Shown one piece after another: positions 644 to 5,614 of a stretch of 5,614 nucleotides of DNA (the stretch's first letter is position 1; each line of letters begins with the position of its first letter). The stretch is from Promethearchaeota archaeon. Lineage in GTDB: Archaea > Asgardarchaeota > Odinarchaeia > Odinarchaeales > JBHLKK01. The position numbers and the translations under genes are program-made. The stretch spans positions 1 through 5,614 of the forward strand of contig JBHLPL010000118.1 of the NCBI GenBank assembly GCA_048939465.1. Direction: 5' to 3'. A model generated the notes under the pieces. It saw nothing but the letters and a program-made list of their open reading frames with translations, had not been told where the DNA came from and searched no databases.

Positions 644-1804
644 CTACTTCACAAAAGGTTCATTATAATTAAGGATTATTTCGGTAACTTCAGGCCTCAT
701 TATTTCCTTGGGGGGGGATTCACCACGGATCAACATATCTCTTATTATAGTACCACTTGGATGAATTATCTCATCACCGCTATGCGGACATATCTGAGAA
801 CTAACATAACCAAGACATCTCCTGCAATAATGAAATTCCTTGAAGAAAATTGGAGTGATTTCTAAGTCTGGGAATTCTGCAAAAATCTCCTGTGCATCGT
901 ATGGTCCATAGAAATTGCCGATGCCAGCATGATCCCGACCAACAACAAAGTGAGTACACCCAAAATTCTTTCGTATAATTGAATGAAATACTGCCTCTTT
1001 TGGTCCTGCATAACGCATTGCTGTTCTTAGGATGGCCATCACGGCCCTATCTTTCAAATAATAGTGATTAATTAGCTCTTCGTACGTCTTCAAGATAACA
1101 TCATCCTTGAAATCACCAGGTTTCTTTTTGCCGATTACAGGATTAATAAATAATCCATCAACAAATGTCAGCGCTGTTTTTTGAAGGTACTCGTGACCCA
1201 TATGTGGGGCATTTCTTGTTTGGAATCCGACAACGGTTCTCCAACCTTTTTCCTTAAAGAGAACCCTGGTTTCTATGGGTCTCAGAGTGTATTTTGCGAA
1301 TGGATTGTCTGTACTATTAATTAGCTCTATTTTTCCTCCAACCAGCCTATCTCTAGACTGAAGTATTCTTGCGACGCCCGGATGCTTAAGATCCCCTGTT
1401 CCAAATGCCCTTCTTGCGTATTCCATCTTATCGTAGGGGAAGATGTCGTCTATGCATAATCGGGCAACTGCCGTTCCTTTATAAGTCAAAATGACAACGT
1501 CACCTGCTTTGAGGTTTGCATCCTGGACCGTATTAGGGGAAATATCCAAAACTATCGGAATTGTCCATGGCGTATCATCGCCCAGCCTCATTTTATGCAA
1601 TACTGACTCAAAATCAGCACTACTCATTGGACCTTCAAGTGGACTGAAGATACCAAACGCGATATTTTCCATATCAACTGAAGATTCCTCTGAGATTTCA
1701 ATTCTCGTCATTTCATTGAGTTCATCTTGTATTTTCTTCCTTGCCTTGTCGCTCAGTACTCGATTAACTAGCCTGCCACCATGAGGTTTTGGTATTTTAC
1801 TCAC
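644..1804 (-). CDS. sat: Sulfate adenylyltransferase (ATP sulfurylase, Sat type), 386 aa
   Basis: N-terminal PHGGRLVNR, PUA-like domain with PWTIPIVL and HPGV, catalytic FQTRNAPHMGHE (RNxxHxxH), MRYAGPKEA, VGRDHAG, SGTIIR and a C-terminal PPKEIMRPEV. Contains a CRRC...CPH zinc-site motif. GTG start with AAGGAG SD at 1813-1818; TAG stop at 644-646. Confidence 0.98.
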   Translation of the reverse strand: MSKIPKPHGGRLVNRVLSDKARKKIQDELNEMTRIEISEESSVDMENIAFGIFSPLEGPMSSADFESVLHKMRLGDDTPWTIPIVLDISPNTVQDANLKAGDVVILTYKGTAVARLCIDDIFPYDKMEYARRAFGTGDLKHPGVARILQSRDRLVGGKIELINSTDNPFAKYTLRPIETRVLFKEKGWRTVVGFQTRNAPHMGHEYLQKTALTFVDGLFINPVIGKKKPGDFKDDVILKTYEELINHYYLKDRAVMAILRTAMRYAGPKEAVFHSIIRKNFGCTHFVVGRDHAGIGNFYGPYDAQEIFAEFPDLEITPIFFKEFHYCRRCLGYVSSQICPHSGDEIIHPSGTIIRDMLIRGESPPKEIMRPEVTEIILNYNEPFVK

Positions 1805-2263: not shown

Positions 2264-3703
2264 TTAAATACCAGATAGGGTCTTGCTAAGGCTTAGTATT
2301 TTCAAATGCTCTCTTTGCCTACCCTTTGTTTTCATCTCCATTCTTATATGCTGTTTTATTTTTTCAAGGAACTCTCTGGCTAGATACGTCTCCTCCTCAA
2401 TGAGATTATAGCGTTCATTAGGATCCTTAGTAAGATCATACAATTCATCAGAAACATCCTCATTGTGCATATCACTGTAAATATATTTCCGATTTTTGAA
2501 CCTATAAGACACTTTGCAGTATCCCTGGTCCAATTTCAAAATTCTGGTTCTTGCTCCCATCAACTTCTCAACTAGGATTCCGACCTCACTAATCGCTGGA
2601 TTCTCGACAATTTGTGGCCTAGATTCCTTTAGGGATTGGCTTAAGTCTCTCCCCAAATAGCTTCCGGGGATATTTTTGTGAAAACCCGAAAGCCCAAGCA
2701 CCGTGGGAGCTAGATCGATCTGGCTTATTTGTTGCGAAAGGACACACGGAGACAGCTCAGGGCCCGCAATAATCAAAGGTACATGAATGGTTTCATCATA
2801 CAATTGACCGTGTCCAAACATTCCATGTTCGAGGAACTCCTGTCCGTGGTCACTTGTTAAAATAAAATATGTATTATCCAGCGTTATGCCGATTTCTTCA
2901 AGCTTTGATAGAAGGAATCCTATGAATCTATCAACATAGAGTACTGAGTCTTTATACCAACTAGAGAGCCACAAAATCTCATCTCTGGAAAGACTTTTTC
3001 TCCCGCCGAGTTTGCTCTCAATCCTCCCAAATTTAAAGGAGGTGAATAAATCTGGTCTATAGGGATGATGCGGCTGGTGCGCATCCATATAGTGGATCCA
3101 AGCAAAGAAGCGACGATCATTTTCTTTTATTAGCTTTAGGAATCTACCAGTAAGCTGTTCCGCAGACAGGAAAGGTGTTAGAAATGCATTCATATATGTG
3201 TAGAGGAAACGTGATAAAAACATCAGAAAGGTACCTAGCCTGAGAGACTTAGCATCCCTTCTTTTCTCAAAGAAGAATTTATTTATATTAAAAATGGCAA
3301 AAGGGCTTCTTTTTCGCTTTCTTGAAGCATTCGTTGCTTCTGAACCATCAAAAAAGGAGGAGAAGCCCCTGTCAAAACCGAAGAATTTTGAAATAAAAGC
3401 GTTAGTTTGACAAGATACGGTTGAAAAGTTCTCTCTTCTTAGCAACTCGACAAACGATTTTCTCGGCGAGAAATTGAGACAGCCATCATACATGAATGGA
3501 TATGTTGATGTCAGAAATGATTGTACAGATAGTGGAGTTCCTGGAGCTACAGAAATCGCATTCTCAAAAAATATGCTCCTTTTGGCAAGCCGCCTAATGT
3601 TCGGCAATCTATTATTCTTGATGAGTGAGTGTGTTGTATCATATCTAAGGGCATCAATTGTTATAAATACGATGTTATGGGTTTCATTGCTTTTTAACAA
3701 CAT
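2264..3703 (-). CDS. Sulfatase-like hydrolase/transferase (AlkP superfamily, Thr-nucleophile type), 479 aa
   Basis: NIVFITIDALRYD (metal Asp), P-N-I-x-x-L-A-x-x-S-x-x-F-x-N-A-x-S-x-A-P-G-T-P-L-S...LTSTYP, FGFDRGF, FFAWIHYMDAHQPH, ILTSDHGQEFLEHGMFGH, LYDETIHVPLII, QIDLAPTVL, ELYDLTKDPNERYNL. The formylglycine motif C/S-x-P-x-R is absent; Thr56 (3536-3538) occupies the nucleophile position. No signal peptide is evident. Confidence 0.92.
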   Translation of the reverse strand: MLLKSNETHNIVFITIDALRYDTTHSLIKNNRLPNIRRLAKRSIFFENAISVAPGTPLSVQSFLTSTYPFMYDGCLNFSPRKSFVELLRRENFSTVSCQTNAFISKFFGFDRGFSSFFDGSEATNASRKRKRSPFAIFNINKFFFEKRRDAKSLRLGTFLMFLSRFLYTYMNAFLTPFLSAEQLTGRFLKLIKENDRRFFAWIHYMDAHQPHHPYRPDLFTSFKFGRIESKLGGRKSLSRDEILWLSSWYKDSVLYVDRFIGFLLSKLEEIGITLDNTYFILTSDHGQEFLEHGMFGHGQLYDETIHVPLIIAGPELSPCVLSQQISQIDLAPTVLGLSGFHKNIPGSYLGRDLSQSLKESRPQIVENPAISEVGILVEKLMGARTRILKLDQGYCKVSYRFKNRKYIYSDMHNEDVSDELYDLTKDPNERYNLIEEETYLAREFLEKIKQHIRMEMKTKGRQREHLKILSLSKTLSGI

Positions 3704-3808: not shown

Positions 3809-3920
3809 CTCTATGAAAGCCCGATTAATGGACTCTCATCGTTCTTTCCCCCATCTGAGAATCTCATCAAAATAGAATCTATCTAATTTCCAACCTCTTT
3901 CATCGAATATCTTTTGGAGG

Positions 3921-3935
3921 AAAGAACTATTAACC
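3921..3935 (+). promoter_or_regulatory. Candidate BRE-TATA promoter of the cryptic + strand gene
   Basis: AAAGAACTATTAACC matches the sulfatase promoter AAAACCTTATTAACC (3757-3771, minus strand) at 11 of 15 positions, including TATTAACC. It ends about 40 nt before ATG 3977. Confidence 0.5.
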
Positions 3936-3976
3936 GGGGAAGGAGTCTAAAATTCGAGTCTTTGGGCGTGAAAAAC

Positions 3977-4330
3977 ATGAAAAGTCGAATATTAGGATAG
4001 CGGACCTATTTTCGCCGAGGGCATAATACTCATCTATATTTCTTAATAAGTTTTCTAAACTTCTTCGTAATACAGTAGACCCTTCTGGTCTCTGATTCTG
4101 AATTACTCGCAACCCTTTTCCAAAGCCTTCTAATATTCGCGATTTCCTTCTTTGCCACCTACGTCCCATTATCAACCATTGTCGGTTGGATTGATTTTAA
4201 ACTTGGTACCGTTCCGATAGATCAAACGATTATAGCCAAGGCAAACCCATGGTTTCGAGACCTAGCAGAGGCCATTCTTCTCTTGGCTGAGGGTAAGAAT
4301 CAAGAAGTGGCAGAAGTAATGAAGAAGTAG
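3977..4330 (+). pseudogene. Cryptic gene for a ~117-aa two-TM membrane protein, interrupted by two in-frame TAG codons (pseudogene or read-through)
   Basis: One frame without indels: MKSRILG*RTYFRRGHNTHLYFLISFLNFFVIQ*TLLVSDSELLATLFQSLLIFAISFFATYVPLSTIVGWIDFKLGTVPIDQTIIAKANPWFRDLAEAILLLAEGKNQEVAEVMKK*. TAG at 3998-4000, 4076-4078 and 4328-4330, then VKK and another TAG at 4340-4342. The protein has a basic N-terminus, two hydrophobic segments and an amphipathic C-terminal helix, with a promoter-like box upstream. An in-frame GTG at 3968 is an alternative start. Confidence 0.7.
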
Positions 4331-4551
4331 GTCAAGAAGTAGACTCGAAGAAATCGTCTCAATCGCTATCCCTGGGGGAACTCAGAGAAGTTTAATCCTG
4401 AATGAAGTTAAAATGCAGGAGTCTAGTTTCACATAAAAACAACATTTAATACCAATCTAGATAATATAGGTTTGGAAGCGTTTGAGGGGACTTAAGAAAA
4501 AGCTTTGCCACACACAGCATAAGGGCTTATCGATGAAATTGGATCAACTGG

Positions 4552-5361
4552 ATGTCTGAAGACCAAACATTTGAGGTGATTGGTTTGCTAGATATTGTTA
4601 TACCGACCAAAAACAGTGATCGAACACTGGATTTATGCCTTAGAGGAATTAAATCAACTATTTCTTATGGGAATGTATTTATTGTAGACAATTTTAGCGA
4701 GGATAACACGAAAGAAATTGCACTAAGTCACGGCTGCAAATATGTGACCAGCCCCTCCAAATATAGCCTGGCTCTGAGGGAAGGAGCTATGATGACCAAA
4801 GGGGATTACTTCATGATTGTTGACAGCGATGTTATTCTTAACAAGAAAGCAAATGTGTTGTTCCGACATATGGGGGATTACGCTGTAATAAAGGGGGTAA
4901 CCAGGCACTGGTTTAGACCCAAGTTTGAAAGCTTAACCAAATACTGGATTGAGAGAATGAGATCAGAAATCTCTGGACTGGAAGCAGCATTGATGAAAAA
5001 AGAGGAGTTCTTGGAATATTCCGGGGATTGGGCTGATAATCAAATGGACGCTGGGGGAGACCTGAATCTGTTTTATAGGTACAAGAAAAATAATATACCG
5101 ATGTTGAATCTACCAGTTGTTGTTAGTACGCACATCACAGGTGATTGGAAAAGGTTTTGGAGACAGGCAATATGGTATGGCAGGAGTTACGGTAACAAAT
5201 CCTATTTACCGATTAGACAGACTAATAGGAACCCATTGAAATCATTTGTTAGGGCTGTCGACGGGGGTCTTAGATACAAAGACATTAAATTGTTTGCTGC
5301 AATCTTTGGCAATATGCTATGTGCAACGATAGGCAGACTTACAAGATTCGCATCCAGATAA
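4552..5361 (+). CDS. Glycosyltransferase family 2 (GT-A fold); true start probably TTG at 4585 (258 aa)
   Basis: DIVIPTKNSDRTLDLCL, IVDNFSEDNT, YSLALREG and the DxD motif IVDSDV. A perfect archaeal SD GAGGTGA at 4573-4579 lies 5 nt before in-frame TTG 4585, giving MLDIVIPTKNS, a typical GT2 N-terminus. ATG 4552 lacks a comparable SD. Confidence 0.93.
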   Translation: MSEDQTFEVIGLLDIVIPTKNSDRTLDLCLRGIKSTISYGNVFIVDNFSEDNTKEIALSHGCKYVTSPSKYSLALREGAMMTKGDYFMIVDSDVILNKKANVLFRHMGDYAVIKGVTRHWFRPKFESLTKYWIERMRSEISGLEAALMKKEEFLEYSGDWADNQMDAGGDLNLFYRYKKNNIPMLNLPVVVSTHITGDWKRFWRQAIWYGRSYGNKSYLPIRQTNRNPLKSFVRAVDGGLRYKDIKLFAAIFGNMLCATIGRLTRFASR

Positions 5362-5614
5362 ATCCAGCGTTGGCGATACTAAGGTGAGATTTTGAGGAAG
5401 TGAAGTACTTAGTTGATGGTTTCGGTTCTGTAACACGCTGCGCAAGCCCAGTACAATTATCTATGATCGAACAACTCGATAGCTGCAATATGTCATTACA
5501 GAGAATTACCCAGTAAAGATTATTATTGCAGTCTAATATTATTGACTAATATGACCAATTTTGTTGTGTTGTATGCTTTTCATAAGACTAGCCCGATTAT
5601 TATGCGCCGATTAT

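Follow-up and report, generated by a model that had tools for sequence, protein, structure and literature searches.

The window, that is, the whole analysed stretch of 5,614 nucleotides, is an entire contig (C65) of a 1.96-Mb metagenome-assembled genome (here G000; 152 contigs, 91% complete) and carries on its plus strand a broken gene for a small membrane protein. With a probability of about 95%, we regard it as a single-copy gene that was recently inactivated in an Asgard archaeon with the standard genetic code, and that lies in an accessory sulfatase/glycosyltransferase segment. It is homologous to intact genes, and the lesions that disable it exist in the DNA itself. The following features of the window are referred to below:

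644 to 1804, minus strand: sat, the ATP sulfurylase gene, with a TAG end here and in the orthologue (context for TAG as a true stop)
2264 to 3703, minus strand: divergent sulfatase gene belonging to the accessory segment of the target gene; the same-genus genome G001 lacks it at this site, and in run X5 it is broken by a nonsense codon
3917 to 3934, plus strand: BRE/TATA-like promoter element with the purine run kept and a TATA part that departs from the more canonical orthologue box
3977 to 4342, plus strand: very probable pseudogene of an unnamed family of small two-helix membrane proteins, 121 codons plus stop, colinear with the intact orthologue at L011:3245-3610 and supported by the family alignment
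3992 to 3994, plus strand: codon 6, TTA (Leu); in sample S3 the strain has TGA here, a stop other than amber (3993 T>G, runs X4 and X5)
3998 to 4000, plus strand: premature TAG at codon 8, TAC (Tyr) in the orthologue, also present in the X2, X4 and X5 contigs
4076 to 4078, plus strand: premature TAG at codon 34, TGG (Trp) in the orthologue, where the family alignment has 87% Tyr and 5% Trp; also present in other samples
4328 to 4330, plus strand: premature TAG at codon 118, four codons before the end, TGG (Trp) in the orthologue (orthologue and family alignment)
4340 to 4342, plus strand: true terminal stop, codon 122 in the alignment with the orthologues, TAG here, TAA in L011 and TAG in L010
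4552 to 5361, plus strand: downstream GT2 glycosyltransferase gene (context)

The sequence-only reading had described this region as a 118-codon plus-strand gene with four in-frame TAG codons, missed by the list of open reading frames. The frame, its stops and the lack of any frameshift hold: starting from the ATG at 3977, TAG occurs at 3998, 4076, 4328 and 4340, and the first other stop is a TGA at 4403. The end of the gene has to be moved from 4330 to 4342, since the TAG at 4340 lies opposite the TAA stop of the orthologue, which makes the TAG at 4328, opposite a Trp codon, a third premature stop. The sole open reading frame listed here, antisense 3930-4175, was considered as a gene and rejected as a shadow; stops interrupt the same frame at the orthologous locus. 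Protein searches with the read-through frame returned intact homologues with 50-74% identity (E 2.4e-42 to 8e-26), and with matches down to E 2.4e-42 and up to 66-74% identity the gene call is sound and the coding signal far above chance. The family profile aligns with the window gene over profile positions 4-122 of 123 (E 9.9e-43), and the family motifs are present.

The intact orthologue (L011:3245-3610) has 121 codons and 73% amino acid identity to the window gene, with 0 indels between the two. The loci L011-L012, where the gene is intact, have the gene order of the window: sat, a small gene that is ribbon-helix-helix-like (RHH-like) by reading of its sequence and has no curated Pfam match, the sulfatase gene, the target gene and GT2. 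The orthologue reads TAC at codons 8 and 19, TGG at codons 9, 34 and 118, and TAA at codon 122, and each premature TAG is thus one base away from a sense codon of the orthologue (TAC/TAG once, TGG/TAG twice). The homologue search across the TAG sites, which the sequence-only reading had proposed as a check, accordingly gives Tyr at codon 8 and Trp at codons 34 and 118, so that the expectation of an aromatic residue at the first two sites is supported (TAC and TGG in the orthologue). The same comparison bears out the proposal that the neighbouring CGG (codon 9) and CAT (codon 19) are decayed Trp and Tyr codons, the orthologue having TGG and TAC there. Every one of the 30 homologue genes examined is intact, and of 34 further Asgard genomes that gave a match, only one showed a stop, in a weak partial match (E 4.8e-5).

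Metagenomes from mangrove and sediment contain DNA that is near-identical to the window, and contigs from run X2 (sample S2) and runs X4 and X5 (sample S3), which belong to a study different from the possible source, were used for comparison. The X2 contig (3222-4652) differs from the window at one position (4049) and has the TAG codons, and the X5 contig (3372-4429) has 10 differences, 0 of them in any TAG. In a metagenome assembly of 152 contigs, one might suspect that the gene is intact and that its stops are errors of sequencing or assembly. However, the same TAG codons recur in contigs from two samples of another study, which refutes this explanation at the contig level and leaves the idea of an artefact, raised before, with next to no probability. 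The S3 strain, seen in two runs of a single sample, has in addition the change at 3993 that turns codon 6 into TGA.

In this genome TAG is an ordinary terminator within the standard code. It ends 395 of the 1181 open reading frames of at least 200 amino acids (33% of stops), and the next in-frame stop lies at a median of 11-12 codons behind TAG, TAA and TGA alike. Among 499 orthologue pairs between G000 and G001 with aligned ends, TAG in G000 stands against TAA or TGA 54 times, and TAG in G001 stands against TAA or TGA in G000 61 times. A census of internal stops in long, high-identity pairs, with shadow frames left out (571 conserved genes, 204,407 aligned codons), gave eight TGA, seven TAG and six TAA codons, and of the seven TAGs all but one, at residue 90 of 580, lie close to or at a gene end or ahead of a probable true start. 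TAG is therefore neither avoided as a terminator nor enriched inside conserved genes, and a genome-wide reassignment does not hold up. The assumption that sat ends in a real TAG is supported by its orthologue, which ends in TAG as well. One further frame with an in-frame TAG was noticed, a wHTH-like open reading frame (C151:238-516) without a match in the 1.1 Mb of G001 searched; given the standard use of TAG in this genome, it is likely to be a pseudogene too.

Pyrrolysine (Pyl) at UAG, as in Sifarchaeia or Methanosarcina, would give a protein with Pyl at three sites. Archaea with genome-wide TAG=Pyl ("code 34") have been described (bioRxiv 10.1101/2024.09.30.615893), and Pyl systems occur in the phylum of the window genome, where Sifarchaeia have Pyl despite 21% UAG stops (PMC9723677). 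This precedent shows that frequent TAG stops are compatible with Pyl and that high TAG use alone is not decisive, and the machinery was therefore searched for directly. In profile searches of the 91% complete genome, with Methanosarcina acetivorans as a control that scored above each cut-off, the best scores were 37.8 bits for pylS (cut-off 178), 24 bits for pylB (348), 44 bits for pylC (248) and 19 bits for pylD (150). For the Pyl-dependent methylamine methyltransferases the search covered mtmB, which was not found while the control was positive. Across the order, pylS and pylB were each found in 0 of 7 genomes, and pylS was present in 2 of 60 relatives, both from another family. No tRNA with a CUA anticodon was recovered by ARAGORN, among the RF00005 matches or by a pattern scan, in a set of only 24 tRNAs of which many have introns, as most of the 24 matches are 87-141 nt long (contigs C2, C21, C66, C77, C79, C88 and C116). 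Several of these introns are apparently located outside the anticodon loop, and ARAGORN miscalls some tRNAs of this genome, for example as a "tRNA-Stop" and a "tRNA-SeC". The window gene shares with the Sifarchaeia and "code 34" systems an in-frame TAG in a gene, and with Sifarchaeia the phylum. Unlike in these systems, pylS, pylB, pylC, pylD and mtmB, and among the tRNAs recovered tRNA-Pyl, were not found in G000, TAG is not enriched inside genes and a TGA allele segregates in the very same gene. The Pyl explanation would furthermore need three read-throughs at aromatic positions in a protein that has lost other conserved residues as well, and its likelihood is minute. Of the two options that the sequence-only reading had left side by side, read-through or recoding of UAG is not supported by the machinery searches, the normal use of TAG or the TGA allele, and the young pseudogene is supported by the intact syntenic orthologue, the presence of the three premature TAGs across samples and the role of TAG as a normal stop.

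Decoding without Pyl was considered as well, either by a suppressor tRNA (Trp, Tyr or Gln) or by leaky, context-dependent read-through of UAG that would yield a little full-length protein. Two of the TAGs are opposite Trp and one is opposite Tyr, and the set of 24 tRNA matches is incomplete, both of which would suit such a mechanism. However, at positions where G001 has Trp, G000 has TAG in only 4 of 2282 cases, all within the first 25 residues of a predicted open reading frame, where start calls are uncertain. The exchange of TAG with TAA and TGA at gene ends also stands against it, three leaky events would multiply, and the TGA at codon 6 puts the S3 strain beyond rescue by any amber decoding. 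This makes suppression or leakiness very unlikely, and the same judgement applies to Pyl-independent read-through restricted to this gene (by suppressor tRNA or mRNA editing, at low expression and with TAG normal elsewhere). Recoding in all its forms together still has only a slight probability. If read-through were true, Asgard archaea would have a new form of stop codon recoding, but the evidence speaks against that.

All three fixed stops are TAG, which is one of the points that can be held against a pseudogene, together with the lack of indels (0), the 91% completeness of the genome, the recovery of only 24 tRNAs and the origin of the TGA variant from one sample. Of all single-base changes that would create a stop in the intact orthologue, 33-36% give TAG, so that three of three stops would be TAG with a chance of about 4% and any one codon three times with about 12%, both before allowing for the selection of the locus, which was picked from a whole-genome scan for an all-TAG pattern. 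About 4.5% of mutations are nonsense, and three stops have a probability of 6-27%, given a rough estimate of 20-40 mutations since inactivation. Neither chance figure requires a special mechanism, and the all-TAG pattern is weak. A targeted process, namely G-to-A hypermutation of the DNA or A-to-I editing of the mRNA that would turn UAG into a Trp codon, would agree with TGG against TAG at two of the three stops. The change from TAC to TAG at codon 8 fits neither process, however, two more TGG codons persist and a third has CGG in its place, and there is no genome-wide excess, which makes a targeted process exceedingly improbable. To our knowledge, A-to-I editing of mRNA has not been described in archaea.

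Several signals of decay agree in pointing toward relaxed selection, each of them modest or weak when taken alone. Fixed changes affect family-conserved residues (R7G, 76% R; W9R, 60% W; Y19H, 76% Y; R76L, 85% R/K), and 10 conserved columns are broken in the window gene versus 0-7 in 15 homologues. The strain variants in the gene are the TGA at codon 6, two substitutions at conserved positions (S25R and N90D) and a single synonymous change, a ratio of non-synonymous or nonsense to synonymous variants of 3:1, compared with 6:22 for the genes that flank it (Fisher p 0.057). In relative-rate counts, made with natural sequences, the gene had about twice as many unique amino acid changes as the orthologue, with p<0.05 for only 1 of 6 outgroups. 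Pairwise dN/dS against the orthologue, another check proposed before, is 0.24 for the target gene, above the values for sat (0.07) and GT2 (0.12) and not near 1; this is a weak point for a pseudogene, although most of the branch would predate the inactivation. Other genes of the genome are broken by TAA, TGA and TAG alike. Apparent nonsense-broken genes with TGA or TAA were noted at C69:44617-44821 and C49:11635, their intact G001 orthologues having 79-88% identity.

The inactivation would have proceeded through three single-base changes to nonsense codons that are common to the sampled strains. Release factor aRF1 would terminate translation at codon 8 and leave a peptide of 7 residues. Between codons 2 and 102 there is no ATG, GTG or TTG in frame, and since the next start codon is codon 103, re-initiation cannot yield a membrane product. 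With selection gone, missense and nonsense changes would keep accumulating and the gene would drift. The window gene resembles ordinary prokaryotic nonsense pseudogenes in variable surface-glycan loci in that its nonsense codons arise from single-base changes, conserved residues are lost, other lesions vary between strains and a close relative lacks the gene. It differs in nothing essential, the three fixed stops being the same codon and an indel not yet having occurred. It is simply another pseudogene, and it serves as a warning that chance can put several TAG codons into one frame.

The intact relatives form a widespread unnamed family (709 clusters at 50% identity matched by its profile) with the motif RxWxYFRRGH...NF...G.DYK.G...NP. 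Its distribution is patchy and includes Bathyarchaeia, Thermoprotei, several Asgard groups, a Woesearchaeon and a few bacteria such as Elusimicrobia; the ESM Atlas clusters of the family are mostly from Nitrososphaerota. Sequence searches of Pfam, NCBIfam, PHROGs and PDB matched no family, and the resemblance to a family of uncharacterised small archaeal membrane proteins, suggested in the sequence-only reading, agrees with intact homologues that lack a curated family. An intact member has two hydrophobic stretches, and its AlphaFold model (pLDDT 95) has a long helix at 6-43, a second helix at 56-81 and a short C-terminal bundle. According to this model, the intact relatives are probably helical hairpins of about 120 amino acids, in which two segments lie in the membrane and the C-terminus forms a small bundle of helices. 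Foldseek returned no match, and the best VIA-align hit (Z 6.4) is a generic helical hairpin, which is no demonstration of a new fold. Clusters of "hypothetical protein" in the ESM Atlas (121-127 aa) are similar to the intact homologue, with Feature scores of 0.94-0.96 and TM values of 0.72-0.78 over about 116-119 residues; unlike the window gene, those genes are intact.

The genomic context of the family often concerns surface glycans. The L010 homologue and five of seven further homologues are located among GT2/GT4, epimerase, sugar aminotransferase or FkbM genes (the other two contigs are too short), GT4 accounts for more of the 40 adjacent genes than any other family (6/40), and several of the homologues in glycan clusters overlap the ends of neighbouring genes. 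At many other family loci the neighbours are unrelated. From this gene context, there are about even odds that the family acts in surface-glycan synthesis as a dispensable accessory factor in the membrane. The family, for which Pfam has no model, recurs in such clusters of archaea and some bacteria (L113, L114, L117, L118, L119 and L010); it is a by-product of the analysis and could receive a model of its own.

At the corresponding locus of G001 (L103:1-1200, G001:C4) the RHH-like gene and GT2 are adjacent, and a segment of about 2.5 kb with the sulfatase and the membrane-protein gene is missing. A family profile search gave no match in G001 (78% complete) or G002 (82% complete). The whole segment, sulfatase and membrane-protein gene, may be decaying. 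The altered TATA part of the element at 3917-3934 is possibly a sign of promoter decay; a sigma-70 promoter scan, a model unsuited to archaea, gave chance-level matches only. In run X5, codon 62 of the sulfatase gene is a premature TAA (variant at 3519), and contig C32 of G000 carries another copy of the sulfatase gene with 57% identity. Compared with L011 (window 3917-5378), dS is 0.6-0.7 for the target gene and GT2 and saturated for sat and the sulfatase, which suggests that the glycan segment was exchanged later than the divergence of its neighbours. Just downstream of the intact orthologue (L011:3735-3875) lies a duplicated fragment of the GT2 C-terminus with 81% identity over 47 amino acids, an apparent sign of rearrangement in the locus.
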